A stretch of DNA of 64,000 nucleotides from an uncultured Chromatiales bacterium (GCA_964437335.1 CAYTGL010000006.1:24523-88522), one strand, 5' to 3'; counted from the first letter of the stretch, positions 1-57,552 are shown. Translations and numbers: made by a program. Notes: a model not told the origin generated them from the letters alone.

Positions 1-2
1 GC

Positions 3-380
3 CGCATTCTTTGTGTCCTGCTGTTCTGCAGCCTGTTATATGGCTGCGGCCGGGAAGGCATTGCCCCCTATCCGCCACAGATCTGGGAAGACCTCATCAT
101 CGAGGTTGAGACCCGCCCGGCCAGGGTCGACGTAGGTATGATGGAATTTCTGGTTATCGCGAGCCGCCAGCCGAGGCGGCCCGCGCACAACCTGCTGGTG
201 TTCATCAGCATCGACGATACCGGCATCTGGCAACAGGCGATTCAGGACGGTCACATGGGAGTCTACCGCCGCGCGCTGCAGGTCACTGATCCGGAAAACA
301 ATGTGCTCAACATCAGGATCCGCTACGACGACCGTGAACGCACCATGCACTTCCCGCTCGCCCAGGAAGCGTCTAGTTAA
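3..380 (+). CDS. 5'-truncated lipoprotein, possibly YtkA/FixH-like
   Basis: The frame of ORF 138..380 is open back to position 3 and reads RILCVLLFCSLLYGC (lipobox-like), then a small beta-rich domain with GHMG. Confidence 0.6.
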   Translation, partial: RILCVLLFCSLLYGCGREGIAPYPPQIWEDLIIEVETRPARVDVGMMEFLVIASRQPRRPAHNLLVFISIDDTGIWQQAIQDGHMGVYRRALQVTDPENNVLNIRIRYDDRERTMHFPLAQEASS

Positions 381-933
381 AACTGATCGTTTTGCTGGTC
401 TCGAGCGTGAGCAGATTGTTTTCACGCTGTGCCCGCCTGTTTTTCAGGATCGTGCTCTCGGTCCAGCGCCTCAGGAACAGGATCCTCTCACCCCGCTGGT
501 CGCTGCAGACAGGACAGGTCAGGTAGGCAATATATAACTCCCTCGGACGGCATCCCTCGTCGACCAGTCGCATCTGCATCGCCTGTATGACCTTGTGACC
601 GGTGCTAAGGTTGCCGTGGTGCAGTTTTGCCCGCGCGACGAACGGAAATGGCAAGGTACTGAAATATCGGGACATCGAAGCGGAACCCTGTTTCAGCAAG
701 CGGGTCAGTGTGCCGCGCAACATCCCGGTCCGGGTCAGCAATAGTCGCGGCCAGGGCTCCTGCAGGTCCATCCGCTCGATGAGTCGCTGCTGTTTCCCCG
801 CGTAGAGGTCGAAGGCGATCGGCATGTGGATGAACATTGGCATCGGTAGCTGGATAACCGGGCAGCCGCCCAGATTGACATCACTGCCATCCCAGTCGGG
901 ATAGGCATCGGGACAGCCGCAGTCAGGCGCCAT
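373..933 (-). CDS. Conserved-looking hypothetical protein with N-terminal CGCP and C-terminal TCPVC motifs
   Basis: 186-aa ORF whose start overlaps the upstream stop. The motif layout (C.CP...WD...MF.HMP...Y.TCP.C) resembles a family loosely annotated as hydrolase. Confidence 0.7.
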   Translation of the reverse strand: MAPDCGCPDAYPDWDGSDVNLGGCPVIQLPMPMFIHMPIAFDLYAGKQQRLIERMDLQEPWPRLLLTRTGMLRGTLTRLLKQGSASMSRYFSTLPFPFVARAKLHHGNLSTGHKVIQAMQMRLVDEGCRPRELYIAYLTCPVCSDQRGERILFLRRWTESTILKNRRAQRENNLLTLETSKTISFN

Positions 934-1441
934 CTTTCCGGAAGATCGACCGGAAGGTCATCAGCACGTTCAGAAAGAAGATCCAGAACCCCATGCCCAT
1001 GACCGTCGCCACAATGCTGATGACCGGTGAGTAATAGCGGTGCACCTCGACCTGGGCGGCGGGATCGGTGAGCAATAAGTGGCCCTCGATGATGCCGAAG
1101 GTGATCAGTGTGCAGTAGAACAGACTCACCCCGGTTGCGGTCCACCAGAAAGTATGATTGATCAATCGCTTCGACCAGACCGGTTTGCCTGAGATCTCCT
1201 GAATCAGGTAATAAGTCGTCGCCATCCCGAGTATCACCATGCCACCGACGAGGTTCATATGGGCGTGGGCGAGCGGATCGATCATGTGCCCCGGACCTGA
1301 ATGCGGGGTTCCGACCGAGACCAGCCAGGCACGGATAGGCGGGAGGACCTGGATCACACCCTGCAGGGTACCGATCAGCAGGAATAATACGGATCCGAAG
1401 ATAAACTTGATCAGGTCACGATATTTCGGGTTCATAGGCAT
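923..1441 (-). CDS. Stand-alone 4-TM heme-copper oxidase subunit I-like protein (helices IX-XII unit)
   Basis: LQGVIQ...AHAHMNLVGG...YYLIQEISGKPVWSKRLINHTFW aligns with the C-terminal third of the CcoN at 10566..11975. Confidence 0.8.
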   Translation of the reverse strand: MPMNPKYRDLIKFIFGSVLFLLIGTLQGVIQVLPPIRAWLVSVGTPHSGPGHMIDPLAHAHMNLVGGMVILGMATTYYLIQEISGKPVWSKRLINHTFWWTATGVSLFYCTLITFGIIEGHLLLTDPAAQVEVHRYYSPVISIVATVMGMGFWIFFLNVLMTFRSIFRKDGA

Positions 1442-1620
1442 ATGTCACAGCGCAGTACAACCGCGCCCGCCAGCGGGCGCCGGATTATCGTCTGGTGATT
1501 ATTGCCGCGGCGTTGCGGGTTGTTACCACGGCGGATTTCGAGGTGATCCGTTCAGGTGGCCTGCGGTCCCGTCAGCACGGCAGGTAGTATATCGACTGCA
1601 GACCCAATATGCACCCCGAT

Positions 1621-1648
1621 CCGGCGGCGGGAGTGCGCCCGCCGCCGG
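1621..1648. other. Strong GC hairpin
   Basis: ccggcggcggg-agtgcg-cccgccgccgg is a perfect 11-bp stem between the 26-aa ORF and the mini-CcoN gene. Confidence 0.6.
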
Positions 1649-1691
1649 GAATCGCGGAAACAGCTTGCGGACTGGTAAAACGCGCTGACGT

Positions 1692-1772
1692 TCAGTCTAT
1701 GGTAGTGAAGGGCAGGATCACGAAAATCGTGAACGCAATACCGAATAACAACATCAGGACACCCAGCTTCAT
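1692..1772 (-). CDS. 26-aa hydrophobic micro-protein (MKLGVLMLLFGIAFTIFVILPFTTID)
   Basis: ATG preceded by AGGGGGG, one TM helix, and a promoter-like element upstream. Confidence 0.5.
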   Translation of the reverse strand: MKLGVLMLLFGIAFTIFVILPFTTID

Positions 1773-1896
1773 GACGAATACCCCCCTAGGTATGATTCCA
1801 CTATTGACAGCCATCCCGGTTCCTTGACCGGAATCGTCAACTACCCCCAAGCGACAGGCGCCGGCCGGCATCGACGGGCCACTCCCAAGCCTGCTT

Positions 1897-1924
1897 ACTA
1901 TAGCAAATCGATCGGGTATTACAA
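1897..1924 (-). promoter_or_regulatory. Putative sigma70 promoter TTGTAA-16-TATAGT with extended -10 TG
   Basis: The minus strand reads ttgtaa tacccgatcgatttgc tatagt, upstream of the 26-aa ORF and mini-CcoN unit. Confidence 0.5.
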
Positions 1925-2146
1925 ACAACCGGGGGATCCCCTAGGAGATTCGGTCCCGTCCGCTTGCAATATCCCTACCCGCATGAAATCTCGAAGTTTT
2001 ATTTCTTGCTGTCCGAATCAGGAAAAGGCCGCAACCGGGCGGCGGGCAATATTGCCATTTCGGGTGTGATTGGCTATAGTCAACCCTTGACGGTCCTCCC
2101 CTTGCCGGGGGATTGCATAACATGTCAGATACGGAGGGGTGACGGC

Positions 2147-2275
2147 ATGGTCGAAGAACTTGGTATTAATGTGTTGGTGCCGATCTTTGTGTTCAGCATC
2201 GTCGTTGTCGGCTCGATTCTGATCTCCAACATGGCGCTTGGCGATCTGAAGCGTCGGCGCGAGCGCGGAGAATAG
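2147..2275 (+). CDS. 42-aa single-TM small protein
   Basis: GGAGGGG RBS before the ATG at 2147. The product MVEELGINVLVPIFVFSIVVVGSILISNMALGDLKRRRERGE is a TM helix with a basic tail. Confidence 0.6.
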   Translation: MVEELGINVLVPIFVFSIVVVGSILISNMALGDLKRRRERGE

Positions 2276-2322
2276 CCGTCACGCGAGCCGGCATCGTCCG
2301 GCCGCGACGACTGCATCACCGG

Positions 2323-2346
2323 TAAAGGGTCCGCAAGGACCCTTTA
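2323..2346. repeat. REP-like hairpin TAAAGGGTCC-GCAA-GGACCCTTTA at a convergent junction
   Basis: Perfect 10-bp stem with a GNRA loop that includes the stop codon of the minus-strand gene. Confidence 0.7.
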
Positions 2347-4950
2347 TTGTATCCGGCGATCGAGCGGCGCGAGCTCCCGCAGGGAATCCCGATACCGCGC
2401 CGCCAACACCTGGTTTCCCGCCCCAGCCTCGAGCCGCCACAACGCATGCAACACCTCGATGTGATCAGGCCGGATAGAGAGTATCCGCTCCAGCGCCGTC
2501 CGTCTATCGATGCCGAGGCTCATCCCCTGATCGAGACTCGCATACATGCGGTCAGCGATATCGAAACTGATCCATCGATCCCGTGGATTCGCCTCCAAGG
2601 CCATGTGCATGAGCCTGGCGGCCTCCTGAGCCCGGTCGCTCAGTGACGCGACCCAGGCCAGGGTCGCAATCTCTGTCGCGATGTAGGCGCCCTCGAACGC
2701 CTCGAAATTCTCGGCGGGGATCTCGAGCATCGCGGCAGCCGCCTCGACTGAAGGCCTGTCTGCCAGCAACCGGCCGGTCAGCCTGCCGAGATCGAATTCA
2801 CTGCCATAGCGCGCCTGGGGCAGACTGAATTCGATGCGCGGCGCCCATTCATCCTGAACCGGACCGTCGTCATGCCGGATTTCGCCCCAATATCTGCCGA
2901 GCCAGGTCCACAAGCCTTCGCCACCGGTCAGTGCATCGCGTTGTGACGATTCCATCCAGGTCATCCGTTCGATGACAGCTTCCATATCCAGCCGGCCCCG
3001 GGGCGTCCCCACCATCGCTACCCTGAAGCCGTCGATAAAGTAAGAGGCCCCGGGGAACACGCGCGCGAAACTGCGCATGACAATATCGAGCGAGCGCGCA
3101 TCAAACTGGTTCAGGGCCAGCCACTGCACAAATACGCCATCCTCGGCAAGACGCTCTCGCACGCGCCAGAACTGCTGCATTGACAGCAGATTACTGCGTC
3201 CAACCAGGTCGGGATGGAACAGGTCACCCACAATCACATCATAATTGCGACCGGCGGCGCGGAGAAAGCGTCTGACATCGTCGTGCACGATACGGGCCTT
3301 GTCGGTGATGCCGTGATTGACCGGCCCGAAGTACGTACCGGCAGCGGCGATTGCGCCTGCGGACAGTTCGACAGCGACTACTGACAGATCCGGAAGCGCG
3401 AGCGAACCCGCCGCGGTGATTCCGGTGCCGAGTCCGAGAAACAGCGCCTCCTTCGGCTCCGGATGCAATATCAGCGGCAGGCGCGCCATGTTCATCTGCG
3501 CCGCGACCGCAGCCGGCTCCGTGGATGCCTCCATGCGCCGCAGGTCCGACAACAATACCCGCTGGCCATCCGGCTGTTCGATGACATGGGTGATCGACAG
3601 CGCATCTTCGTACACCATCATGTCCCGACTGCCGGCATGCGGTCCAGGCAGCAGCCGGTTGACTTCCGGCAGGGAACCGATCGGCCAGCTGAGCGCAAGC
3701 AACAGTGGCAGCGCAAACCACATTCGCCGGGACGTCGACCAGGCCATGCCGAACAGAAAGAGCAGCAGCGCTGCGACACAAATCGTCGCTGGCGTCCCGA
3801 TCCACGGCACCAGGATGAAACCCGCCGCCAGGGCGCCGACCGAGGCGCCTGTTGCATTCGCGCCGTAGAGCCAGGCGCCGGTCAGGTTATCGCCGGCGCC
3901 GATGCCGCGGCTGAGCAGCGGCAGCCAGGCGCCGAGCACCAGCGTCGTCGACAGGGTCAGCAGCGCAATTGCCAGGCCTTGGGCAACCAGCGCCGCCCCG
4001 AGCGATCCGAATTCAGCGCCGTCCGCCCAGGCCGCGAGTACCGACAAGCCCGCAAGACTGAGGAGCGCCGTCGCGCTTGCAACGGGCGGGAACCACGTGA
4101 GACCCGTGGAAACCGGGATCCGCCTGGCCAGCAGGCTACCCAGCCCAATGCCGATCAGGAAGATGCACAGCAAGATTGCCAGCACATATTCGGTGCGCAG
4201 CAGAATCATGCCATACAGGCGCGTCCAGCCGACCTGCAGCATGAGCGCCGCTGCGCCTATGCCGGCATAAAACACCAGCGTTCGCCAGGGAGGGCGCGCG
4301 CTGGTCACGATCGTAGCGCCCGCCGCGAACTCGTGCCTTGCAGATAGCGAGATCAGTACCGCCGCGAGCGCGACCAGCAGGCCCAGGGTCGCGACCAGCT
4401 GGATCGCGCCTGCCCAGCCTACCAGCGGCAGCAACAGCAGCGGCACCAGGGCGCCGCTTGCTCCGCCCAGCGTGTTCAAACCGTACACCGAGACGATCGT
4501 CACTGGGGTGTTTTCGAAATAGCGTAATACCAGCGGGAAACCGACACCGAGCGCCAGCGCGGGAAAGAACAGGATCAGAAACGAAACTACGCCCTGCAGC
4601 AGAAACCACGACTTCAGCGGCAGGACAACTGCGATTGCGCCGAGCAATCCGTCAACGAAAGCAAACAGCCAGGGCATCGACAATGCGAATATCGCGACGC
4701 CCCCCTCGAGCAGCGCGAACAGGACCAGTGGGCGTGTAAACCGGCGTACTGACCAGGCTCCGAGCAAGCCGCCCGCGCCAAGGCCTGCCATGAATGCGAC
4801 CAGCGTGACGACCACGCCGAAGTTGCTGACGCCGAACTGGATGGACAACATGCGCACCCACAGGACTTCATAGGCGACGCCGGTGACACCGGACAGGAAG
4901 TAGATCCCGAGCAGCAGCGATGTCCACCTGCTGCCAGCGGTCGCCTGCAT
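2344..4950 (-). CDS. Fused MFS-like membrane domain / spermidine-synthase-like SAM-binding protein
   Basis: Multi-TM N-terminal half (SGVTGVAYEVLWVRML, LRTEYVLA) followed by LFLGLGTGITA, VELS and YDVIVGDLFHP. Start taken at MQATAG (4950). Confidence 0.85.
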   Translation of the reverse strand: MQATAGSRWTSLLLGIYFLSGVTGVAYEVLWVRMLSIQFGVSNFGVVVTLVAFMAGLGAGGLLGAWSVRRFTRPLVLFALLEGGVAIFALSMPWLFAFVDGLLGAIAVVLPLKSWFLLQGVVSFLILFFPALALGVGFPLVLRYFENTPVTIVSVYGLNTLGGASGALVPLLLLPLVGWAGAIQLVATLGLLVALAAVLISLSARHEFAAGATIVTSARPPWRTLVFYAGIGAAALMLQVGWTRLYGMILLRTEYVLAILLCIFLIGIGLGSLLARRIPVSTGLTWFPPVASATALLSLAGLSVLAAWADGAEFGSLGAALVAQGLAIALLTLSTTLVLGAWLPLLSRGIGAGDNLTGAWLYGANATGASVGALAAGFILVPWIGTPATICVAALLLFLFGMAWSTSRRMWFALPLLLALSWPIGSLPEVNRLLPGPHAGSRDMMVYEDALSITHVIEQPDGQRVLLSDLRRMEASTEPAAVAAQMNMARLPLILHPEPKEALFLGLGTGITAAGSLALPDLSVVAVELSAGAIAAAGTYFGPVNHGITDKARIVHDDVRRFLRAAGRNYDVIVGDLFHPDLVGRSNLLSMQQFWRVRERLAEDGVFVQWLALNQFDARSLDIVMRSFARVFPGASYFIDGFRVAMVGTPRGRLDMEAVIERMTWMESSQRDALTGGEGLWTWLGRYWGEIRHDDGPVQDEWAPRIEFSLPQARYGSEFDLGRLTGRLLADRPSVEAAAAMLEIPAENFEAFEGAYIATEIATLAWVASLSDRAQEAARLMHMALEANPRDRWISFDIADRMYASLDQGMSLGIDRRTALERILSIRPDHIEVLHALWRLEAGAGNQVLAARYRDSLRELAPLDRRIQ

Positions 4951-4966
4951 GCTCAGTTCCGGGCTG

Positions 4967-5350
4967 TTAGAAAGGGAAGAACCAGACGATCGCTGTGACG
5001 GCATGGACGATCGCGAGGAAGACACTGACTCCGGCGAATATCATGTGTGCCAGAAACACCTGCTTGCCGAACGCCACCATCGAGACACCGAGCACGGCGG
5101 TGGTGATAATGGTGATCAGCAGGACAAAGCCCATCATGAACAGGATCTGGTGCTTGCGTTCGTCACTGATCGCGACGACGTCGCTCTTGACGACCTCCCC
5201 CTCGGTGAACCCCCGTAAGACATCGAAGGGCTTGTCTGTGTCGTCTTCCGCGCGGGAGACGCCGGGGGAGACCATTACACCGACCAGGACCAGCAGGAGA
5301 CATACGATCCACAGCCTGGTCGACCGGTTACTGCCTGCAAACACTGTCAT
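4967..5350 (-). CDS. Hypothetical membrane protein with signal-peptide-like N-terminus and two C-terminal TM helices
   Basis: 127-aa ORF with a 4-nt overlap with the upstream gene. His residues lie in the TM segments (LAHMIF, IVHAV). Confidence 0.7.
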   Translation of the reverse strand: MTVFAGSNRSTRLWIVCLLLVLVGVMVSPGVSRAEDDTDKPFDVLRGFTEGEVVKSDVVAISDERKHQILFMMGFVLLITIITTAVLGVSMVAFGKQVFLAHMIFAGVSVFLAIVHAVTAIVWFFPF

Positions 5351-5601
5351 CGCCGGTTTTCGTTATCGTCGTTGTCGGTCGGGTCATCGGTCTCATCGGG
5401 CTTCGCGAACCTCCAGTGCATGATTGCCATCAGGATCAGCGGCACCATGACCAGGGGCAGCAGAAATACGAAGATCATCCACGGGGTATTGATGCTGACA
5501 GTCACCCAGCGATAGCTGTCAAAGGCGTGCGCGGCCTGTGACTGGCCCATCAACAGCGAGAGGAATATCCCGAATTGAAATGATCGTGCTGTAATGCTCA
5601 T
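5347..5601 (-). CDS. Hypothetical small membrane protein
   Basis: 84 aa, signal-like N-terminus, one TM helix, acidic tail, and 4-nt overlaps on both sides. Confidence 0.7.
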   Translation of the reverse strand: MSITARSFQFGIFLSLLMGQSQAAHAFDSYRWVTVSINTPWMIFVFLLPLVMVPLILMAIMHWRFAKPDETDDPTDNDDNENRR

Positions 5602-6662
5602 TCGACATCCTGCGCGACTCTGAATCCGAAGAAATCAGATGCATAGTTGGGCAACGAAAAATTCCGGTGAAAGGACGAGGTCGAGAACGGATCGCTCTTC
5701 CAGGACCCGCCACGGATGACCTTGTAACGCTCGTTTGTCGGCACGAACTCCGCGATCGACAATGACCGGAGCGAAGCGGAATCCGGAATCGCCGGCAGGC
5801 TCGCGTAGAACATGTGCTCGGGCGCCGGCGATCCGGGATAGGGCAGAAAATCGTCATCGACCCATTCGGCGATGTTCCCAGCCATGTCCATGACGCCGTA
5901 GGGACTCGCGCCATTCTGATACCGCGTCACTTCTGTCGTTGATCCTACACGATAATAGGTGTTCAGGCGATCCGGATCCATCCGGTTACCCCATGGCCAG
6001 CGCCAGCCTTCAGGACCTCTGGCGGCCCGCTCCCATTCCGCTTCGGTCGGCAAACGCATGCCGGCCCATTCGGCATATCTTTTCGCATGGAACCATGAAA
6101 TCATCGCCACCGGATGCAATTCGATACCCGGCGGTATCTTGCCGCCGGTCCAGTGTATCGGTGGCCGCTGATTGGTCGCAGCGATATAGCGCGCATACTG
6201 GGCATTTGTCACGGGATATTTCGCGATACGGTACGCCGCCATCTCGACGATATGCTCAGGCTGGTTCTGCACGTCCGCGCGCGGCATGTTGGTCCCCACC
6301 GCGTAGGGGCCGGCCGGAATCTCGATCATCGTACCGATCTCGCGCCACTGCTCGGGCGTCAGTAATGCCTCCGCCTCTTCAACACTGTAGCTGGCTACCA
6401 GTCCGGGCATATACTGATGCTCGACCTCGAGGAAAAGATCCTGCCCGGCCGCGCGTTGCCTGTCCCTCGCCTCGTTGATATCGTAGGTCACCTTGCCGCG
6501 CATATCGTTCATACGGTTTTCACCGAGCTTCAGCACATGCAGGCTTCCGCCGAGGAAAGTCAGCACGAGACACGTGACGAGGGTTGCGGTCATGTACCGC
6601 TTCCTGATTTTCACCTGCCGCTTGTCGCGGAGGACTCCCTGGGGTGTATAGCTGATGCTCAT
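5598..6662 (-). CDS. Membrane-anchored FGE-sulfatase (SUMF1/EgtB/PvdO) fold protein
   Basis: IPAGPYAVG, YPVTNAQY, HPV..ISW..A..YA.WAGMRLPTEAEWERAARG, DMAGNIAEW, RGGSW and GFRVA motifs. Confidence 0.9.
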   Translation of the reverse strand: MSISYTPQGVLRDKRQVKIRKRYMTATLVTCLVLTFLGGSLHVLKLGENRMNDMRGKVTYDINEARDRQRAAGQDLFLEVEHQYMPGLVASYSVEEAEALLTPEQWREIGTMIEIPAGPYAVGTNMPRADVQNQPEHIVEMAAYRIAKYPVTNAQYARYIAATNQRPPIHWTGGKIPPGIELHPVAMISWFHAKRYAEWAGMRLPTEAEWERAARGPEGWRWPWGNRMDPDRLNTYYRVGSTTEVTRYQNGASPYGVMDMAGNIAEWVDDDFLPYPGSPAPEHMFYASLPAIPDSASLRSLSIAEFVPTNERYKVIRGGSWKSDPFSTSSFHRNFSLPNYASDFFGFRVAQDVE

Positions 6663-7171
6663 CGGTCAGAACCCTTGGGTAATTCCGCAGTGCTCGCCGG
6701 CTTGGGATCAATCCTGCCGTACTTCTTGTGCAGTTTATGGAGATTGTGCCGTTCCGTCCTGCCATAGGTTCGCCTGACCATGACTTCGCCGATGACGCCT
6801 CCGACCGTCGCAAACTCGACGCAGAGTATGATCACGAATATCCAGTAGCCGATCGGCAGGATGACCCCGCCGTCAGCCGGCGTGGTTCCATACACCTGAT
6901 AATAGAGGATCGAGTGAACGATGAGCGCAGGGGCATGCGCAAGTATTTTCCCGCCCAGTCCATAAACCAGCGATACGGCAATGCCTGCAAGAAAGGGCAC
7001 GAAAAACAGCGTCAGGACCCACTGGGGCGTATAGGTCGCCGGGCCATAATAAAATTCCAGCCTGACCCCGAGCAACTTTCCTCCGAGGTAAACCACGACC
7101 GCGCCTGCTGCAACCGCGCCCGCGGCGACGCAGCAGTCCATCAGGCGGCTTTTTATCTGCGGTCTATTCAT
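6659..7171 (-). CDS. Hypothetical 4-TM membrane protein
   Basis: 170 aa, hydrophobic, with overlaps to both operon neighbours. Confidence 0.75.
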   Translation of the reverse strand: MNRPQIKSRLMDCCVAAGAVAAGAVVVYLGGKLLGVRLEFYYGPATYTPQWVLTLFFVPFLAGIAVSLVYGLGGKILAHAPALIVHSILYYQVYGTTPADGGVILPIGYWIFVIILCVEFATVGGVIGEVMVRRTYGRTERHNLHKLHKKYGRIDPKPASTAELPKGSDR

Positions 7172-7655: not shown

Positions 7656-7929
7656 GCTTCTCAGCGTGCCGCCGTGCCTTCTCTTTCAGAAACTCGCCTC
7701 TCAGCTCAGTCTGATGCTCGATGACTTCCCGCGACTTGGCATACTCCTTCGGGTCCATCTTATCCTCGTCATCCTTGTCGAAAACGACATACTTGATGTC
7801 TTCGTCGAACTGGTAGTTCTTCGCCGCCCAGCGCAGGCCGACAATTACACCGATCAGAATGCCGGCTGCGGCGATCATCCATACATAGATAGTCCAGCCG
7901 TCGGGTAATGAATGCAGAAATTCTTTCAT
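7642..7929 (-). CDS. ccoS: CcoS-like cbb3 maturation protein
   Basis: TM helix followed by WAAKNYQFDEDIKYVVFDKDD, resembling the CcoS/FixS W.....QFDD motif. Confidence 0.65.
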   Translation of the reverse strand: MKEFLHSLPDGWTIYVWMIAAAGILIGVIVGLRWAAKNYQFDEDIKYVVFDKDDEDKMDPKEYAKSREVIEHQTELRGEFLKEKARRHAEKHANR

Positions 7930-7943
7930 GGTCTTGCTCCTCG

Positions 7944-9493: not shown

Positions 9494-9508
9494 TATCGTT
9501 CCCCCTCG

Positions 9509-10468
9509 TTATTTCAAGCTGGTCAAAACCCAGTCGATTACTGCCCGGATCTCGCTATCACGTGCATATTCCGGTACCTCCGGCGGATAGGCCCGCAAGC
9601 CCTGGCGATACTCGTTATACTCGCGACGCCACTTCGGATAGTCGATCTTGTTGCCCTTGGCATCGACGCGACCCCACAGATAATCGAAGCGCGGCATAAT
9701 CGAGTTCGGCTGAGTCAGGCGAGGATTGAAGAAGTGCATCATCATCCACTCGCGCGACGAATTGCGGGAGGCTACGTGCAATATGTCGGGCGCCTTGCGA
9801 TCCGATCCAAATGAAGTCGGGTTTTCACCGTTCATGTCGCCGACATACGGAGGCCAGCCAAAGATCTGGAAGTCCTGGGCTGCCTCGGGCAGCAGCGTAT
9901 GGCACCACCAGCAGCCTTCGGTGACATAGACCGTCTTGCCCCTGGCGACATAGCGGTGATTCTCGTCTCCGGTGGCACGCAATATTTCTTCAGGCATCCA
10001 TCCGCGTGTCGCGGTCGCGTTTTCGATGTAGGCCCACTCCTCGCCCTTGCTGCTCTTGCCATAGCTGATCGTGAAAACCGCACCGGTGTTTTTGTCCGCC
10101 TGGTCGATGCGTCCCTTTTGAATGCTCAGCTGTTGTACTGTCGATCCAAGATTCGCTGGATGGTTGACCGTCGATGCGAACGGCGTGCCCGGCTTGTAGA
10201 CATAGGCACGAATCGCGGGATCAATTGGTGCGCCGGTCTTCGGATCCTTGCTCAATATCACCGTAATCGGCTTGCCCGCACCACGCACAAACGGATCTTC
10301 ATAGGAAAATCCGATTACGCGACCATTCGACAGCGCCTTGTCCAGCCCCACCCAGGTCGAGTCCGCCGACCTGAAGTCGAAGCTGGGCAGGAACAGGGTT
10401 ATCGTCATCGACAACCCGAGCATTGCGCCGACGCCTACTGATCCGAGTTTATATTCTTGGAATGCCAC
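9509..10468 (-). CDS. ccoO: cbb3-type cytochrome c oxidase subunit II with a large periplasmic insertion
   Basis: G..VY..EGCWWCHT, FGSDRKAPDI, W...HF.NPR..QPNSIMPRFDYL. GTG start after a GAGGGGAG RBS. Confidence 0.9.
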   Translation of the reverse strand: MAFQEYKLGSVGVGAMLGLSMTITLFLPSFDFRSADSTWVGLDKALSNGRVIGFSYEDPFVRGAGKPITVILSKDPKTGAPIDPAIRAYVYKPGTPFASTVNHPANLGSTVQQLSIQKGRIDQADKNTGAVFTISYGKSSKGEEWAYIENATATRGWMPEEILRATGDENHRYVARGKTVYVTEGCWWCHTLLPEAAQDFQIFGWPPYVGDMNGENPTSFGSDRKAPDILHVASRNSSREWMMMHFFNPRLTQPNSIMPRFDYLWGRVDAKGNKIDYPKWRREYNEYRQGLRAYPPEVPEYARDSEIRAVIDWVLTSLK

Positions 10469-10489
10469 TTATCTCCCCTCCCCAGGCTT

Positions 10490-10529
10490 CCTTGCTTCCC
10501 CCCGGTCGACCCGGGGGGAATTTGCAAGG
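10490..10529. other. Intergenic hairpin between ccoN and ccoO
   Basis: ttccccccgg-tcgac-ccggggggaa, extended by ccttgc/gcaagg. Confidence 0.6.
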
Positions 10530-10565
10530 TACTAGTTTCTAGATTATGCCGTAAACGATGCCTGC

Positions 10566-11975
10566 TTACCTTTCGTAGGCCAGCTCGTGCGCATAACGGC
10601 CCTTGGGCACCACGGTCCCCTCACGGGCGGTCATATACATGTTGTAGAGCCAGACCATGTTTCCGGTGAACACCATCGTGCCGCCGATCCAGCGTCCGAT
10701 CATGTAGGGATGCTCGGCGACGACGACGTCGATATACGGCACCTGGTATACCTTGGCGGCGCCCTGAATCAGACCCGCGACCGTCATCGTGATCCAGTAG
10801 ATGCAGAATCCGATGAGCACGAACCAGTAGTGGAAGTTGGCAAGCACCAGCGAGTAGAGCTTTCTGCGCAGCACCTGCTGCAAACCGAAGTACACGGCCG
10901 CGATTTCGAGGAAGCTCGACATGCCGAGCAGCGCGAGGTGCGCGTGCGCCACGATCCAGCCGGTGCCGTGGATGTACCAGTTGATCGCGCGGGTCTGCTG
11001 GAAACCGCCCTGCATGTTCAGCGGGATGGCGAGCAGCACGCCGGTGACCGAGAACTTGATCTCGATGTTCTCGACGAACATGCTCCAGCGCCCTTTCATC
11101 GTCAGCAGGATGTTGGCGACGAACGCGACCGCCGGGATCAGGATCAGCACGCCCTCGACCGAAGCGAAGGACTTCAGCCACTCCGGCAGCGGCGCCGACA
11201 GCAGGTGATGCGAGGCCGGCGTCGAGTAGAACGCGATGATCGACCAGAAATGCAGGTGACCGACGCGGTGCGAGTACAGCGGATTACCGGTCAGCTTCGG
11301 GATCGTATAGTATGCGATCGCCGCGGCCACCGGCGTGATCCACAAGCCGAGCACGTTGTGCGCGAACCAGAAGGTCAGATAGCCCTCGGTCAGTCCGGTC
11401 AGATTGAACAGTTCCGGAGACTGGCCGACGACGAACGTCGTCATGACGAAGAAGATACAGGCCCCGAAGAACCAGTTCGTGATGTAGATACCCTGCGTTT
11501 TTCGCTGCGCAATGGTCATCCAGACGTTGATTCCCAGCGGCAGCAGTACACCGAATATGATGACCAGGTCGATCGGCCAGATCAGGTCGGAGTACTCGCG
11601 GCCTGAGGTGAATCCCGTCCACAGCAGGATCAGGCCGAGCGACAGACCGACATTCCACATAAAGGCAGTCCAGAGACCGAGCTTTTCAGACCACAGTCTG
11701 GTGTTGCCGAGGGCCGGCGTCATGTACATCATGGTCATCGCGAAGGCCATCGAGATCCAGCCCAGGATGACCGCGAGCACGTGCACCTGGCGCATGTGTC
11801 CGAACGCAAACAACTCGGTCCCCGTCACCATATCCGGGAAAGCGAGTTTGGACGCATTGAACGAGCCGAGGCCGGTGCCTACGATGAACCACAGGATCGA
11901 GGAAAAACCGAAGAAGAGCGTCGCTGTTCCCGGCGGGATATCCTCAGATTTCGCGAACAAATATTTCAGTATCAT
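10566..11975 (-). CDS. ccoN: Divergent cbb3-type (C-family) heme-copper oxidase subunit I
   Basis: QVHV (heme b), REYSDLIWPID, WFAHN (CuB), YSTPASHH (Tyr plus CuB His pair) and WIVAHAH (b3/b ligands). GGAGG RBS. Confidence 0.95.
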   Translation of the reverse strand: MILKYLFAKSEDIPPGTATLFFGFSSILWFIVGTGLGSFNASKLAFPDMVTGTELFAFGHMRQVHVLAVILGWISMAFAMTMMYMTPALGNTRLWSEKLGLWTAFMWNVGLSLGLILLWTGFTSGREYSDLIWPIDLVIIFGVLLPLGINVWMTIAQRKTQGIYITNWFFGACIFFVMTTFVVGQSPELFNLTGLTEGYLTFWFAHNVLGLWITPVAAAIAYYTIPKLTGNPLYSHRVGHLHFWSIIAFYSTPASHHLLSAPLPEWLKSFASVEGVLILIPAVAFVANILLTMKGRWSMFVENIEIKFSVTGVLLAIPLNMQGGFQQTRAINWYIHGTGWIVAHAHLALLGMSSFLEIAAVYFGLQQVLRRKLYSLVLANFHYWFVLIGFCIYWITMTVAGLIQGAAKVYQVPYIDVVVAEHPYMIGRWIGGTMVFTGNMVWLYNMYMTAREGTVVPKGRYAHELAYER

Positions 11976-12091
11976 GCTGCCAACCCTCCTGGATCACTGA
12001 CGATCCCTAAAGAATCGAATCGATTAGTAATTTTATAGTGAAACTCTCCAAGACTCCCCGACCGGATACGAAGAGCGTTGAAAAGCGGCAA

Positions 12092-12181
12092 TCACTCCGT
12101 CATCTTGGTCATCAGATACCACGTGAACCACATGCTCGAAAACGCAAGCAGAACACCAAATGTCCCAGCAATTGCAGCCAT
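12092..12181 (-). CDS. 29-aa single-TM micro-protein (MAAIAGTFGVLLAFSSMWFTWYLMTKMTE)
   Basis: GAGGGGGA RBS upstream of the ATG; lies between the 96-aa gene and ccoN. Confidence 0.6.
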   Translation of the reverse strand: MAAIAGTFGVLLAFSSMWFTWYLMTKMTE

Positions 12182-12241
12182 TTCTATCCCCCCTCGGATA
12201 TCTTCAATTCTGTTAATCCTGAACGGTTCCGCGGCGCCTGT

Positions 12242-12532
12242 TTACCAGGTCGCGTCGCCGCCTTTCGCCTCGCGCTGACCATGCTTGTGGCAACCGATCA
12301 TGACAATGATCGAGAACGCGAGACCGAATATCAGCATCTGCCATGTCATGAAACCGTTGAACTGCGTCGGGTCGAGATTGTCCTGCGGCCAGCCGCCCCA
12401 TGCCCCGAATGGCTCACGCCCCAATGCGCACATCATCGCGGCGCCGAACACGCTGCCATTGCCCATCCCGGTCGTGAACGCGGGTATGGCCAGGATCCAG
12501 AATAAACGGCCAAAAGTGAGCTTGTTCTCCAT
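12242..12532 (-). CDS. Hypothetical 2-TM membrane protein, first gene of the cco operon
   Basis: 96 aa with a GGGGGAGGAG RBS. Confidence 0.8.
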   Translation of the reverse strand: MENKLTFGRLFWILAIPAFTTGMGNGSVFGAAMMCALGREPFGAWGGWPQDNLDPTQFNGFMTWQMLIFGLAFSIIVMIGCHKHGQREAKGGDATW

Positions 12533-13005
12533 CTCCTCCCCCCTGATTTCAAGTTATCTTGCTGCTGCCAAATCCTGTCATCAAAGCCTTTAACGAAATC
12601 TATGCCGCGCTCCTCATCTCGGCCGGACGGCTGGCGGCAATCCATGTAGCCGCACTGTTGTCATGGTCGACAAGTGTGCCTTCAGGCGCAGAGAGAATCA
12701 AGGAAAGTCTTGCCGGGTCGAAACACCCGCTGCGATCTGGGGCGGTGCCGGAATGTCTAACGGGAAGGGCGCGGTAATACTCGACATGCGTCGCAATGCG
12801 TTGAACACTGCGCATGCAGTAGTGGAAGGTAAATCCGGATTTCAGCACCCCGTCCCTCATGACCGCTCCCAGCCCGCTCAACTACCAACAGAGCCCGTTT
12901 TTTATTGTTGTCGTGCATGGGTTCAGGTGATCGCCGCCATGTCTTCGCGGTCTTGTGCCCGATCAACCGCACGAGCCACCGTCTAACCCCTCACGCTTTC
13001 AGGTG

Positions 13006-13033
13006 ATTATAGCCATAATATCGCAACTTGCAA
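13006..13033 (-). promoter_or_regulatory. Putative sigma70 promoter TTGCAA-16-TATAAT for the cco operon
   Basis: Near-consensus hexamers on the minus strand inside an AT-rich patch. Confidence 0.6.
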
Positions 13034-13291
13034 CCATCGCGAGCGGCATTTTCCTGTACAGGCCCCGCAATAGCGGCTGCCGGGATTGGTTCTATTTTAC
13101 TTACAAAAAATCAACTAGTTATAAATACCGGGATATAGCGTCGCCAGGACAATATTCCGCCGGCGTCGATTGCGCGCCGGCATCCCTGTCGCAGGTTTGA
13201 ACTCGCCTCCCGATATGAGAAAATCACGCGCTGGTTCATGCCGCCCGCCGGCAAGCAAAATCCGATATCTCGAATCCACCTGCCTGACGAC

Positions 13292-13522
13292 ATGAGAGAA
13301 ATCATCATCTACGGTATTGTGGCGATCAGTTCGCTGACCATGATCGCGTACACGGTCAGGATGTTCATCGGCGGACTCGTCAGCAGGCAGACCGAATACA
13401 CGATCATGGCGCTTGTCACCGTGATCGGCGCCGCGGTGCTGGCATTCCTCGCCTGGGATGTCATCAAACGCAGGCGCGCCGCCGATGCGGGCTCAGCCGA
13501 AACGGAACGCCATCACGACTGA
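13292..13522 (+). CDS. Small 2-TM membrane protein
   Basis: 76 aa from MREIIIYG, with two hydrophobic helices and a basic tail. Confidence 0.65.
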   Translation: MREIIIYGIVAISSLTMIAYTVRMFIGGLVSRQTEYTIMALVTVIGAAVLAFLAWDVIKRRRAADAGSAETERHHD

Positions 13523-13599
13523 ATGCCTGCCTCACCGCCGCGCGCTATACCATTTGCTCGGCGGCGGACACGAGGGGAAATACTGCGGGAACGCAACCG

Positions 13600-14058
13600 T
13601 CAGCGATAGACTTCCAGCAGCGCCTTGGCGCTCTTGAACTCGGAATCGCTGGGGAACTGGCCGATGTGAAAGATGTGCTGCTGTTTCCTGCCTTCAAGGT
13701 CCATCCCGGTCAGCGCAAAGGTCTTGCCGCCTATTTCCGAGAAGAAGCGCAGATCCTTGACCAGCACTGCGTTCGTTCCGTTCCTCAGTGTCAACGTAAC
13801 ACGATCCTTGTCGATCCCGATCGCAACCGGTGCTGACGGCAGCAGCATCATGCGAGTCCTGAGGATACGATTCGCGCCGACCATAAAAAACAGGCTGGCG
13901 AGAAATATCAGCAGATAGGACCAGGCGGCGTTCGGCCCGTAGGAGAGTCTCAGTCCGATGAGCCCGAGAAAACAGACCGTCGGGACATAAAGCAACAAGT
14001 CCCATGCCATGCCTTTCCGGTCCTGCACCAGTTCGTAGCGGGATTCCTTTCTCGACAC
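13600..14058 (-). CDS. Hypothetical protein with two N-terminal TM helices and a soluble beta domain
   Basis: 152 aa, 4 nt downstream of the thioredoxin-like gene. Confidence 0.7.
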   Translation of the reverse strand: MSRKESRYELVQDRKGMAWDLLLYVPTVCFLGLIGLRLSYGPNAAWSYLLIFLASLFFMVGANRILRTRMMLLPSAPVAIGIDKDRVTLTLRNGTNAVLVKDLRFFSEIGGKTFALTGMDLEGRKQQHIFHIGQFPSDSEFKSAKALLEVYR

Positions 14059-14062
14059 GCGA

Positions 14063-14599
14063 TCATCCCTTCTTCCGTTCGATCACGAGCGTTTCAATGA
14101 CCTGATCGAGCTCCCCATACAGAAGGCGACCGGGGCGCTTGAAGCGCACAATGCCCTCCTCGTCGATCAGGAAGGTCCAGGGCTCTCCGGTGACGCGAAA
14201 CGCGACAAAGGCGCCGGGGTTCTGGTATTGATCCATGTGCAGGAAGACGATGCCTTGCTCTTCGTACTTGTCCATCATCGCCGACAGCATCTGCAACTGC
14301 TTGTCGCAGACCGTGCAGTGCGCCGGGGTCGCGAATGCGATGACGACCGGGCGGCCTTCCTTCAGCACATGATCGAGCGAATATTTGTACATCCGCGGAT
14401 CCGGATGGCGATAAGAAGTCAGGCGCGACAAATCCTGGCCAACGTCATCCAGGGTCACGGTGCGGATAACCGGGGCCTTCGTGCCGAGCTTGAGGGTTCC
14501 GACCGGAGATTCGACGCAGGCCCCGAGAACCAGGACAGCGACGAACAGTACGGCGAGCTTAATCGACGCGATTATGCGGCTTGCCGGTCCCTCAGCCAT
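14063..14599 (-). CDS. Thioredoxin-fold lipoprotein with CxxC
   Basis: Lipobox LVLGAC, then FATPAHCTVC and GEPWTFLIDEEG. Confidence 0.8.
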   Translation of the reverse strand: MAEGPASRIIASIKLAVLFVAVLVLGACVESPVGTLKLGTKAPVIRTVTLDDVGQDLSRLTSYRHPDPRMYKYSLDHVLKEGRPVVIAFATPAHCTVCDKQLQMLSAMMDKYEEQGIVFLHMDQYQNPGAFVAFRVTGEPWTFLIDEEGIVRFKRPGRLLYGELDQVIETLVIERKKG

Positions 14600-15152
14600 A
14601 GGTCTTCTCCTGCTGATAATTCGGCTCCTGCAGATTGATCTCGGATGAGCGTCTGCTGGTGCGATAGATATTATAACCCCAGATGCAATTGGCCAGCAGC
14701 ACGAGCGTTCCGAAAATGCCGCCCGCCATCATTAACGGCAGCACCAGCATCGTCACCTCGTTCGGCGGCAGGGACACGCTCGCGCGTCCGCCGACAACGC
14801 CGGCCGCGCCGAAACAGCCAACCAAGCCGAGCAGGCCGAAGTTATGCATCCAGAAATGCACCTTGACGAGGGCGAGGCTGTAGATCGGGCGCTTGACCAG
14901 GCGCGGTACCAGGTAATAGATCGCACCGAAAATCGCCATCTCGACCCAGCCGAGCAGGTTCAGATGGGCATGGCCCAGCATGATCTTGTCGCCGTGCGGC
15001 CGGTTGCGGATGAAATGCGCGACATCGGGCATCATGTTGACGAGGACGCCCCAGCTGAATCCGATGATGCTGTAGATGATGCAGGCGTAGATGAACCACA
15101 GGGTGTACCGGTTGAAATCCCGTTCCCGTTCAGTCAAGCGCGGCTCGCTCAT
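14592..15152 (-). CDS. Second stand-alone 4-TM heme-copper oxidase subunit I-like protein
   Basis: GHAHLNLLGWV...YYLVPRLVKRPIYSLALVKVHFW matches CcoN helices X-XI. Confidence 0.85.
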   Translation of the reverse strand: MSEPRLTERERDFNRYTLWFIYACIIYSIIGFSWGVLVNMMPDVAHFIRNRPHGDKIMLGHAHLNLLGWVEMAIFGAIYYLVPRLVKRPIYSLALVKVHFWMHNFGLLGLVGCFGAAGVVGGRASVSLPPNEVTMLVLPLMMAGGIFGTLVLLANCIWGYNIYRTSRRSSEINLQEPNYQQEKTYG

Positions 15153-15176
15153 GTCGGTTTCCCTCCTCGCTTCAAC

Positions 15177-15749
15177 TCACTCGTTTTCGACAGGCTGAAT
15201 CTCACGGATATCCCTGTACTGCTCACGCCAGGAATCGGGCACCCACATGTTCAACATCCGGTCGATGAATGGCGAATCTCCCGGTGGCGGCACCTTCGCG
15301 ACCGACGAGCCCGCATCGGCTCTCAGTTCAGACAGGAAGATCGCGATCAAGCGGCGATCCTCTTCCGACATGCCCGCGACGTAGGCGGCTTCTTTCGGCG
15401 GGGACCCGTGATCGATCGTCGGCGCGCCATAGACTTCTTCGGGATTTGCAAGGAAGCGCTCCAGGTACTCGAGCGAACGCGCCGAACCGATGCCGTCGAG
15501 CGACAGCCCCATGCTCGTGCCCGCGCGCAGGGCCCGATGGCAGGCATTGCAGTTGGCCCGCTGATACAGGCCGGCGCCCTTGCGGCCCTCTTCGGAGAAA
15601 TCGAAATACGTGAGCTGCTCGAATAGCGGGGTATCCGACTTCATACGCACCGTTTCGAGCCCGATGTAGACGAATATGGCGCTGACAAAAAACACGCCGA
15701 AGATCATCAGAAGGATTTTTTCGCCCAGCTTCAGAGGATTTTTACTCAT
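15177..15749 (-). CDS. Membrane-anchored monoheme cytochrome c
   Basis: N-terminal TM helix, CNACH and LSLDGIGSARSLEYLERFLANP. Confidence 0.85.
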   Translation of the reverse strand: MSKNPLKLGEKILLMIFGVFFVSAIFVYIGLETVRMKSDTPLFEQLTYFDFSEEGRKGAGLYQRANCNACHRALRAGTSMGLSLDGIGSARSLEYLERFLANPEEVYGAPTIDHGSPPKEAAYVAGMSEEDRRLIAIFLSELRADAGSSVAKVPPPGDSPFIDRMLNMWVPDSWREQYRDIREIQPVENE

Positions 15750-15802
15750 GATATCCAGCCATCGCCTGTTGTGTTGCCGATATCCCCTCCCTCTGGTTCA
15801 GA

Positions 15803-15833
15803 CAAAAAATGAGGGCGGTAATGCCGCCCTCAT
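15803..15833 (-). terminator. Rho-independent terminator after cytochrome c4
   Basis: atgagggcgg/ccgccctcat stem followed by a U tract on the minus strand. Confidence 0.75.
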
Positions 15834-15974
15834 CATTAGCTTCCGGAGTATTGTTATTAGTGCGCCGGTCGAATCAGAATGCCGCAGAGATTTCCATCGC
15901 AGCTGATACGAAACCGGACGGAGGTCGGGACCGTCCGGCGCGTTCAACGCACGCGCCGGACGGTTGCCGGTGGT

Positions 15975-16817
15975 TTATTGACCTATTGCCTTCATCCTAT
16001 CATGAGCCACATGGACACCGTGGTCATAAGGCGTGCGGTTGCTGCCGGTCGCAAAGTAGGGATCCGCTACCGAGAGGTAGGCTGCGGCGTCCAGAATATC
16101 CTGATCGGATAACTTCTGGGCCACCTTCTGCATCTGCCCCATCGGATCGTTGGCCCTGCTGCCGTCGCGCCACTGCCTCAACTGGGCGACCAGGTACGTA
16201 TAGCGCTGCTGGCCGATCATCGGGTAAACCGGCGGTGCGCCGGCCCCGCCCACGCCATGGCAGGACTTGCAGGCCGGTACGCCAGGTCCCTGACTGCCGA
16301 GATCACGCGGATAGCCGTCAGTCCTGACCGGGCTGCCAAACTCGACGAGTTGACGGCCACGATAGGGCCTGCCGACCTCGACGCCGCTCGCGGCCAGCTC
16401 TTCGAGGTAGCTCTCGTTGAACAGATATGGGCTGGCAGGAAATTTGTTGGCGAGATAGGTCGCGACATCGATCCTGTCCTGAGGACTCAGCGCCGCGGCG
16501 AATGCGTTCATGACCACGCCCGCGCCCTGCGGCGTACGCTTGTTAGCGGCGAAGTCCTCGAGTTGCTTGTACAGGAACGTAAAGAACTGACCGGCAATCC
16601 GGGGAGCGCCCAACGCATCAATTCCGGTCCCGTCTTCACCGTGACAGGACAAGCAGGCTGCCGCATCGCCTTTCCCTTGTGTAAAGATTTTATGGCCATT
16701 GGCCATGTCGCCCGGCCCGAGGGAGTACAAACCCTTCGCAGCCATCGCATTACCCGTCGACAGCGCAAACCCGATCATCACCGCAATCGCTGTCAATACC
16801 AGCTTCTTGTGTCCCAT
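15975..16817 (-). CDS. Dihaem cytochrome c4-type periplasmic cytochrome
   Basis: Signal peptide, CLSCH and CKSCH, PRIAGQ...YL.KQL and QQRYTYLVAQL. Start taken at MGHKK after GGGAGGGG. Confidence 0.9.
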   Translation of the reverse strand: MGHKKLVLTAIAVMIGFALSTGNAMAAKGLYSLGPGDMANGHKIFTQGKGDAAACLSCHGEDGTGIDALGAPRIAGQFFTFLYKQLEDFAANKRTPQGAGVVMNAFAAALSPQDRIDVATYLANKFPASPYLFNESYLEELAASGVEVGRPYRGRQLVEFGSPVRTDGYPRDLGSQGPGVPACKSCHGVGGAGAPPVYPMIGQQRYTYLVAQLRQWRDGSRANDPMGQMQKVAQKLSDQDILDAAAYLSVADPYFATGSNRTPYDHGVHVAHDRMKAIGQ

Positions 16818-16918
16818 TTGCAGACCCCTCCCGCGTGTAAACTCGCCACTTTCCGTAGAGTCACCGCCGCAGTTCACTGCGATAGCTCCTCGCGAAGATT
16901 TCTATTGTTATTCAGAGC

Positions 16919-17020
16919 CTACTTCGAATTCACCCAGAGCAGCACCGCCGCCAGGGTAAACGCCAATCCGAACCAGATCGCATAGACTGTAACGACACCT
17001 GCTGTATCCAGTACAAACAT
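16919..17020 (-). CDS. 33-aa single-TM micro-protein (MFVLDTAGVVTVYAIWFGLAFTLAAVLLWVNSK)
   Basis: GGGAGGT RBS, downstream of an extended -10 element, upstream of c4. Confidence 0.65.
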   Translation of the reverse strand: MFVLDTAGVVTVYAIWFGLAFTLAAVLLWVNSK

Positions 17021-57549: not shown

Positions 57550-57552
57550 ATC

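Follow-up and report, generated by a model that had tools for sequence, protein, structure and literature searches.

What kind of oxidase is encoded at the start of this stretch of DNA, and do the many genes around it belong to it? The stretch, referred to here as the window, comprises 64,000 nucleotides (nt) from an uncultured Chromatiales bacterium (GCA_964437335.1 CAYTGL010000006.1:24523-88522), and positions 3-19175 of it carry a divergent ccoN-ccoO pair of the cbb3 type (C-family haem-copper oxidases) within a group of about 24 genes. We consider it probable, with some reserve, that the cluster is a conserved supercluster of a 'distal' (CcoNO-type) cbb3 terminal oxidase in microaerophilic lithoautotrophs that use Fe(II) or solid electron donors. 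Its carriers are Zetaproteobacteria, Gallionellaceae, Tenderiales and neighbouring Gammaproteobacteria.

An earlier note, made from the sequence alone, had ranked the cluster as its best candidate for an undescribed system. This claim fell, since the region has already been drawn gene by gene for Ca. Tenderia electrophaga (Eddie et al. 2022, bioRxiv 10.1101/2022.05.06.490989). The cluster and its conservation are published and open no new category; the window lineage is a further member of this widespread cluster, with a lineage-specific inversion. What is new here is a CcoP-like anchor without haems, a CcoN fragment that keeps haem ligands, a formylglycine-generating enzyme (FGE) fold without cysteines, and a CcoG-like gene just outside the window.

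Conservation and layout of the cluster

The cluster is a real, conserved gene neighbourhood and not a chance arrangement. We scanned one genome per species and kept the best 80 loci of the 390 genomes with a CcoN relative. The 25 window proteins were run by tblastn against all 80 loci, and presence was counted among the loci long enough, as in the fractions given throughout. CcoN homologues with 72-91% identity came from metagenome-assembled genomes (MAGs) of Gammaproteobacteria, from Betaproteobacteria and from Zetaproteobacteria, including Mariprofundus ferrooxydans. Among the 80 loci are those of Ca. Tenderia sp., Sideroxydans sp. and Ca. Gallionella acididurans, as well as of Chromatiales MAGs with 96% identity.

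Almost everywhere the gene order is the same. The first part codes for a protein of 497 amino acids (aa), cytochrome c4, a 190-aa cytochrome, a CcoN fragment, a thioredoxin, a 152-aa protein and a small gene on the opposite strand. The second part holds the 96-aa protein, CcoN, CcoO, the 221-aa, (50-aa) and 108-aa proteins, a CcoS-like protein and a 163-aa cytochrome, and the third the 170-aa protein, an FGE-fold protein, the 84-aa and 127-aa proteins and an MFS/spermidine-synthase fusion. About 20 further genes travel with the CcoN-CcoO pair: the genes downstream of ccoN are found in 90-99% of the loci and the upstream module in ~78-82% (53-57 of 66-72). The M. ferrooxydans locus (L001) is syntenic gene for gene with a CcoN 73% identical, and the loci of Ca. 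Tenderia sp. (L056) and Sideroxydans (L073) are syntenic with the window as well. The gene-neighbourhood check that the earlier note had called for came out in favour of linkage: the accessory genes are inherited with the CcoN clade, in one order across three proteobacterial classes.

These data bear directly on the idea that an ordinary ccoNO pair merely has unrelated passenger genes for neighbours. Most of them have no recognised family, and one orphan ccoN of the clade (L050) has no accessory genes nearby, both of which speak for passengers. However, the gene order is shared by ~60-75 loci of Gamma-, Beta- and Zetaproteobacteria, which excludes 'unlinked passengers', and the family of the 221-aa protein at the ccoP position is essentially confined to the cluster context (34 representatives in 1.84 billion proteins). 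We regard this explanation as refuted by the synteny survey and its probability as close to nil.

Regarding the layout, genes were called via third-position G+C and translated, and protein-family scans were run on the products. The G+C content is ~58-60% over the first 19 kb, where the coding signal is nearly all on the minus strand; the genes below lie on that strand unless marked (+). The scans of the window recovered nearly every item of the gene list in the earlier note, and its limits (3-17020) proved too narrow at both ends. On the left, a partial gene for a small lipoprotein (3-380, +), with its 5' end beyond the window edge, belongs to the cluster, and further genes lie left of position 1. 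On the right, a conserved polytopic membrane protein of 497 aa (17682-19175, +), divergently transcribed, precedes the first housekeeping gene, fpg/mutM. It lies beside the c4 gene in 41/56 loci and is a probable outer member of the cluster; its PMT_2 match (20.6 bits) is below the cut-off.

Successive genes overlap by 4-8 nt, which suggests that they form operons. A gene for a small protein with two transmembrane (TM) helices (13238-13522, +) splits the cluster into two transcription blocks. Its frame is conserved in 65 loci with a median of 62 bits and never shares the strand of ccoN, whereas the antisense frame reaches only 31 loci at 36 bits. About nine small hydrophobic or membrane proteins round off the cluster, and a six-frame motif search of the 64 kb found CxxCH confined to the four cytochromes of the cluster.

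Two local rearrangements were observed. In three loci of Burkholderiaceae or 'beta proteobacterium' MAGs (L064, L069 and L076), the genes for the 163-aa cytochrome and the CcoS-like protein lie upstream of ccoN, and the c4/cytochrome/fragment/thioredoxin module lies downstream of the gene at the ccoP position. In Mariprofundus (L001:7219-9394, also L002), an insert separates the upstream module from the 96-aa and ccoN genes; it encodes two cytochromes c and a NirK-like multicopper oxidase of 353 aa with two domains, and no other locus of the 80 has it.

The catalytic subunit and its partners

CcoN (10566-11975) is the divergent, 'distal' catalytic subunit of a C-family haem-copper oxidase. Pfam COX1 matches it over its full length (243 bits), and in the alignment with P. 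stutzeri CcoN (3MK7_A, 212 bits) it carries every residue for a predicted haem b and haem b3-CuB oxygen-reducing site. The haem b ligands H65 and H346, the haem b3 ligand H344 and the CuB ligands H206, H256 and H257 are all present and pair with H60, H347, H345, H207, H257 and H258 of 3MK7_A, respectively. On helix 7, six residues ahead of the HH pair, Y250 corresponds to Y251 of 3MK7_A, the C-family cross-link tyrosine, and the Ca-site glutamate E127 aligns as well. All of these residues, E127 among them, are invariant across eight clade members.

At the same time, CcoN scores 218.6 bits against the NCBI curated equivalog TIGR00780 (cut-off 583.15), and CcoO 52.8 bits against TIGR00781 (cut-off 200.65). 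Both are far under their cut-offs, in agreement with the distinct C-family oxidase type that had been proposed for this locus. By these scores CcoN forms a divergent C-family branch and is not a canonical CcoN; its place is among the 'distal cbb3' oxidases (Ducluzeau 2008).

The orphan ccoN mentioned above (L050:9995-11407), from one gammaproteobacterial MAG, is 79% identical and has its ligands intact; there is no ccoO or other cluster gene within 10 kb, and its neighbours are housekeeping-like.

The conserved active site also matters for a different assignment, in which the enzyme would be mainly a nitric-oxide reductase (NOR), or NO-detoxifying, and not an oxygen reductase. C-family oxidases show some NO-reductase activity, a glutamine stands at the position of P. 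stutzeri Glu323, and the NirK-like copper oxidase of M. ferrooxydans lies with its two cytochromes c directly upstream of ccoN. But the cross-link tyrosine, which NOR enzymes lack, is kept together with the three CuB histidines, and the best sequence and fold matches are to CcoN and not to NorB. Moreover, the NirK-like insert is limited to two Mariprofundus loci, and the hosts are obligate microaerophiles with high expression of the enzyme in oxic growth. We consider a main function in NO reduction very improbable, and continue with the distal cbb3 terminal oxidase.

The gene for monohaem CcoO (9509-10468; 72/73 loci) adjoins ccoN, as in cbb3 holoenzymes. The protein is enlarged, 319 aa vs. 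200-242 aa in solved CcoO chains, and it is built of an N-terminal TM anchor, an insert of ~145 aa and a monohaem domain with a single CWWCH. FixO (cut-off 29.6) covers residues 176-266 only, with 53.4 bits, and the CcoO chains of the PDB align only to 175-271. The ~145-aa stretch between the anchor and the haem site found no match in the family or PDB comparisons.

At the ccoP position, a 221-aa protein with two TM helices (8828-9493; 70/71 loci) contains no CxxCH. The earlier note had called it ccoP-like, which is accurate for its N-terminal anchor, the remainder having no resemblance to CcoP. Within its family, FixP_N matches are sub-threshold and limited to 20 of 121 members (best E 0.0065); the window protein itself matches at E 0.12 over residues 31-65. 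All 320 homologue clusters are unnamed and without a Pfam domain. The AlphaFold (AF2) model, with a predicted local distance difference test score (pLDDT) of 83, places two TM helices on the flanks of a domain of ~110 residues with helices and a four-stranded sheet. There was no sequence match in the PDB, Foldseek returned nothing with E < 1, and a profile search of the 1.84 billion protein representatives retrieved 34 sequences of the family, mostly fragments and none of CcoP length; we rejected the protein as a true CcoP on these grounds. It may sit at the CcoP site on CcoN, carrying no haem. A FixP_N-like anchor is common to this protein and the 146-aa protein found beside CcoG (hhalign probability 90%, E 1.4e-6).

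Several small membrane proteins are encoded on both sides of these genes: one of 96 aa directly upstream of ccoN (12242-12532; 75/76 loci), a single-TM peptide of 50 aa (8679-8831) with a 4-nt overlap with the preceding gene, and one of 108 aa (7944-8270; 66/68 loci). The 50-aa peptide, detected by tblastn in 27/70 loci, had been labelled ccoQ-like; no family matched it, so the label has no homology support. A gap of ~400 bp (8271-8678) separates the 50-aa and 108-aa genes in an otherwise tightly packed operon. The gap is also present in the close relative L083, its 55-aa open reading frame (ORF) is not conserved, and there was no Rfam match.

The oxidase core would then consist of CcoN and the enlarged CcoO, with the haem-less 221-aa protein as a CcoP-like anchor in place of the dihaem CcoP and the 96-, 50- and 108-aa TM proteins in a structural CcoQ/CcoM role, a composition for which we see the chances as evenly balanced.

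CcoN fragments, electron donors and assembly factors

Two further proteins, of 186 aa (14592-15152) and 172 aa (923-1441), match the last third of COX1 only and are 23% identical to each other. The second, with an H-A-H motif, covers COX1 profile positions 308-411 (36 bits). The first corresponds to CcoN helices 9-12: by BLASTP it shows 31% identity to residues 336-467 of the window's own CcoN, and its H61 and H63 align with H344 (haem b3) and H346 (haem b). The fragment family comprises 782 clusters, all of 167-202 aa; H61, H63 and N65 never vary in it, and H99 and H103 hardly do. The AlphaFold (AF2) model of the 186-aa fragment (pLDDT 87) has CcoN chains as best Foldseek matches (TM-score 0.74, root-mean-square deviation 1.7-2.6 Å), and it fits them better than A- or B-family oxidases or NOR. 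Both stand-alone four-helix units are genuine pieces of CcoN, spanning its helices 9-12 with the haem-ligand histidines retained. Lacking helices 6-7, they have no CuB site and therefore cannot be oxidases; they likely bind haem.

The first fragment always follows, by ~24 nt, a membrane-anchored monohaem cytochrome c of 190 aa (15177-15749; PF00034 28 bits, TM residues 12-30, CNACH motif), and it has an 8-nt overlap with the thioredoxin gene. The cytochrome adjoins the first fragment in every locus having the upstream module. It is 24% identical (E 1e-7) to the second anchored monohaem class-I cytochrome c of the cluster, of 163 aa (7164-7655; PF00034, CTNCH, CxxCH at window coordinate 7484; 67/68 loci). 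We also considered the 190-aa cytochrome as a CcoO paralogue and rejected it, as BLASTP found no similarity.

Each truncated CcoN could act as a haem-binding four-helix membrane protein that forms, with its neighbouring monohaem cytochrome c, a small b/c electron-transfer or assembly module docking to the oxidase; we put this forward as a tentative and rather unlikely proposal. Slightly more doubtful is a bolder version, in which the fragments would represent a novel class of b-type membrane cytochromes derived from oxidase subunit I. With the anchored monohaem cytochromes, both proteins with a FixP_N anchor and the small TM proteins, they would build up an enlarged oxidase around CcoNO, of an architecture unseen in solved haem-copper oxidases and specialised for electrons of high potential that come from Fe(II) or from extracellular donors.

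The fragments also raise the question of whether the cluster encodes one machine or two. CcoNO with a few small subunits might be a self-sufficient oxidase, and the truncated-CcoN/cytochrome c pairs, the thioredoxin, the FGE-fold protein and the MFS/spermidine-synthase fusion a separate membrane complex, as in the 'alternative complex IV' idea of Eddie et al. 2022, which might feed electrons from extracellular donors to the quinone pool or sense the redox state. The genome layout offers some arguments for it: the opposite-strand gene and a gap of ~1 kb part the upstream module from ccoN, the ~20% of loci without that module still hold the block from CcoN to the MFS/spermidine-synthase fusion, and the module has moved downstream in some Betaproteobacteria (L064, L076). 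Besides, Eddie et al. 2022 treat 'cbb3-1' and 'cbb3-2' as partial oxidases of one putative complex. Nevertheless, a four-helix fragment without CuB ligands cannot reduce oxygen, the modules stay linked in three bacterial classes, and family scans of the module show no quinone-binding or other catalytic domain. We hold two separate machines to be improbable, and return to a single distal oxidase with its accessory genes. The roles given to individual accessory genes are tentative.

The likely periplasmic electron donor is the dihaem cytochrome c4 (15975-16877; 48/62 loci), which is Cyc1-like. It has two class-I c-type domains, with CxxCH at residues 75 and 203, and its best PDB matches are the cytochromes c4 6q2u, 1etp and 1h1o (E 1e-18 to 1e-22). 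The c4 sequence of P. aeruginosa (6q2u) recurs in entry 8smr, a bc1-cbb3 supercomplex, and the window protein also matches c-552 of A. ferrooxidans. We find it moderately probable that electrons would pass from this c4, and possibly from the membrane-anchored monohaem cytochromes, straight to CcoO.

Concerning maturation, the upstream module encodes a thioredoxin-fold (TlpA/ResA-like) protein (14063-14599; AhpC-TSA 35.6 bits; 56/69 loci) with CTVC, the CxxC being at residue 95, which is a probable lipoprotein. Downstream, a CcoS/FixS-like single-TM protein of 95 aa with a C-terminal extension (7642-7929; 67/68 loci) matches FixS only sub-threshold (E 0.0038, 17.4 bits, cut-off 23.1). The earlier identification as ccoS is weakened by this score, and the W-x-x-K-x-x-Q-F-D-E motif is recognisable all the same (WAAKNYQFDED).

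The FGE-sulfatase-fold protein (5598-6662; PF03781 159.9 bits; 59/62 loci) has a NirV/DUF323-type domain and a membrane anchor. It lacks the catalytic cysteine pair; because its only cysteine lies in the N-terminal TM anchor, it cannot be a formylglycine-generating enzyme. A second FGE-sulfatase-domain protein of 385 aa, 28% identical to it, is encoded far from the cluster (52843-54000, minus strand).

CcoG, CcoH and CcoI were not recognised in the earlier note. Within the 64-kb window this stands: the CcoG polyferredoxin (Fer4_5 + Fer4_18) is absent, six frames contain neither CxxCxxCxxxCP (expected in CcoG) nor DKTGT (CcoI P-type ATPase), and the family scans of the cluster proteins gave no FixH or E1-E2 ATPase match. 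Beyond the window it does not hold for CcoG. In 36 loci, the MFS/spermidine-synthase gene is followed by one for a Fer4_5/Fer4_18 protein of 435-440 aa (the CcoG domain pair), and then by genes for a protein of ~145 aa and a small lipoprotein; the lipoprotein after the 146-aa gene is also found in L059, L068, L045, L021, L022 and L027. At this place, after the MFS/spermidine-synthase gene, the window and the loci closest to it carry the second CcoN fragment and a Bact_hydrolase gene.

We read the left flank not from the window's own contig but from that of a close relative, L083, which aligns colinearly over window 2-19139 (87-88% nucleotide identity). There, the lipoprotein/146-aa/CcoG-like block lies inverted just beyond the hydrolase gene, and the stop codon of the CcoG-like gene is ~0.5 kb left of the site equivalent to window base 1. 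The partial lipoprotein gene at the window edge is 87% identical to a 129-aa gene of L083 and part of the same block. The suspected leftward continuation of the cluster is confirmed by this flank, including a ccoG relative. The different maturation gene set once proposed is reduced to CcoH and CcoI, which were not found in the cluster or this flank, as a weakly CcoS-like gene lies inside the cluster and a CcoG-like one nearby.

Tenderiales carry FixHIS beside a separate canonical ccoNOQP (Eddie et al. 2022), which, by analogy, could supply CcoH and CcoI in trans. Cofactor insertion might rely on the CcoS-like protein, on the lipoprotein with the thioredoxin fold and CxxC, which would reduce thiols in the handling of haem c or copper, on the CcoG-like ferredoxin, which would reduce Cu(II), and perhaps on the FGE-fold protein; we rate this set as possible, at somewhat less than even chances.

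Some points weigh against the overall interpretation as a distal cbb3 terminal oxidase. In CcoN, Q322 takes the position of P. stutzeri Glu323 and is glutamine in 8/8 aligned clade members, so proton handling may differ from that of the studied cbb3 enzymes. The similarities to FixP_N and FixS sit below the Pfam thresholds. The upstream module, from c4 to the 152-aa protein, is missing in ~20% of the loci and is therefore not obligatory. Finally, from the transcripts of Ca. Tenderia electrophaga, the canonical ccoNOQP and not the distal cluster was judged to be the main oxidase (Eddie et al. 2022).

The other genes of the cluster are as follows. The MFS/spermidine-synthase fusion (2344-5025; NF037959 53.7 bits, cut-off 40, and PF01564; 55/58 loci) has a polytopic membrane part, a spermidine-synthase-like part and a helical C-terminal part. 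Its true start is probably near 4950, and the L083 orthologue has 868 aa. Between this gene and that of the FGE-fold protein lie those of a 127-aa membrane protein with three hydrophobic segments that matches no known family (4967-5350; 58/61 loci) and of an 84-aa single-TM protein (5347-5601; 56/61 loci), whose stop overlaps the start of the next gene by 4 nt. A 170-aa membrane protein with three hydrophobic segments (6659-7171; 59/63 loci) has no family above threshold. The 152-aa protein of the upstream module (13600-14058; 56/69 loci) has two TM helices and a C-terminal soluble domain of no known family. Near the left edge, the 186-aa Bact_hydrolase (PF20603) gene (373-933; Pfam 33.3 bits vs. 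cut-off 27) is found in only 8 loci close to the window; it is lineage-specific and peripheral to the cluster.

Positions 1441-2344, ~900 bp between the MFS/spermidine-synthase gene and the second CcoN fragment, hold no convincing gene. The sole ORF has 78 aa with one hydrophobic segment, there was no Rfam match, and nucleotide identity is 68-81%, in the nearest relatives only. We looked for a CcoG pseudogene in this gap; nothing beyond noise came up in tblastn, even with E raised to 50.

Searches for regulatory elements were mostly negative. No FNR/Anr box was found in the cluster, Rfam had no match in window 1-20 kb, and the repeat search returned nothing meaningful. Promoter and terminator scans showed no excess over the shuffled expectation, save one strong terminator-like hairpin after the c4 gene (15808-15834, minus strand; 11-bp stem with 7 G-C pairs, then a T run), which is a consensus match only.

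Positions 19177-52552 are occupied by housekeeping genes (fpg, an ABC auxiliary system, ptsP, rpoN, recG, spoT, asmA, mutY), and neither a Cyc2-like porin-cytochrome nor a second oxidase was found in the rest of the window. Adjacent genes at 54103-60181 (+) encode a DUF11/CARDB repeat protein of 1148 aa and an Lcl_C-domain protein of 643 aa, probably cell-surface proteins.

Comparison with known systems

In neutrophilic iron oxidisers and in autotrophs grown on electrodes, electrons are presumed to end their path at the distal oxidase. The cluster offers a defined target for learning how a cbb3-type enzyme works without the dihaem subunit, how copper and haem are supplied without CcoH and CcoI, and what role the oxidase fragments play.

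The 'proximal/distal' split of cbb3 oxidases goes back to Ducluzeau, Ouchane & Nitschke 2008 and has been used for Sideroxydans, Gallionellaceae and Zetaproteobacteria. In Sideroxydans ES-1, distal ccoN and ccoO were at the 98th-99.5th expression percentile and a cyc1 homologue lies in the cbb3 cluster; in the proteome of M. ferrooxydans PV-1, CcoN and CcoO were the only subunits found; and in Ferrovum, co-localised cytochromes were suggested to replace subunit III. The window shares with the distal clusters of Sideroxydans ES-1, Gallionellaceae and Zetaproteobacteria a divergent CcoN and CcoO without ccoQP and a Cyc1-type c4 in the cluster, and its CcoN shares 73-79% identity with those of Mariprofundus and Sideroxydans. 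It differs in belonging to a Chromatiales-like gammaproteobacterial lineage, and the cited papers treat ccoNO and cyc1 only; the accessory genes are not described in Emerson 2013 and Kato 2015.

The closest match is the region of Ca. Tenderia electrophaga (ALP51721-ALP51744; 'cbb3-1/cbb3-2'). Eddie et al. 2022 reported 26 orthologous proteins in a conserved arrangement in Tenderiales and neighbouring orders, described them, without a known function, as 'a sort of alternative complex IV', and noted an earlier sighting in freshwater iron oxidisers. No later functional study on truncated CcoN or alternative complex IV turned up in a full-text search. Their order –dihaem, monohaem, truncated CcoN, thioredoxin, CcoN, CcoO, monohaem, CcoG, second truncated CcoN– and the gene list of the published figure legend match the window; their gene 26 'truncated CcoN' corresponds to window 923-1441, and the FGE-domain protein is annotated there as a Ser/Thr kinase. 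The window lineage departs from this arrangement in three ways: the CcoG/146-aa/lipoprotein block, in inverted orientation, comes behind the second truncated CcoN, there is an additional Bact_hydrolase gene, and no monohaem cytochrome was seen between CcoG and this second truncated copy.

With canonical ccoNOQP and ccoGHIS (P. stutzeri 3MK7, R. capsulatus, B. japonicum fixNOQP-fixGHIS), the window has in common the catalytic fold, the ligands, the CcoO partner, a weakly CcoS-like and a nearby CcoG-like factor, and a cytochrome c4 as likely donor. Unlike them, it has no dihaem CcoP, CcoH or CcoI, and it presents the CcoO insert of ~145 aa and ~15 extra conserved genes.

Two single components also have relatives elsewhere. 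The FGE-fold protein resembles NirV/DUF323, found beside copper nitrite reductase, in its Pfam domain and in being encoded beside a copper enzyme gene, whereas it has a TM anchor and no cysteine pair; this likeness is one of domain and position. Finally, the CcoN fragments recall the ccoN genes that occur as orphans in Pseudomonas (Jo et al. 2017, eLife), which are likewise extra CcoN-derived genes beside a full oxidase operon. The Pseudomonas genes code for full-length catalytic subunits, whereas the extra copies of the window are one-third of that length and have no CuB ligands.

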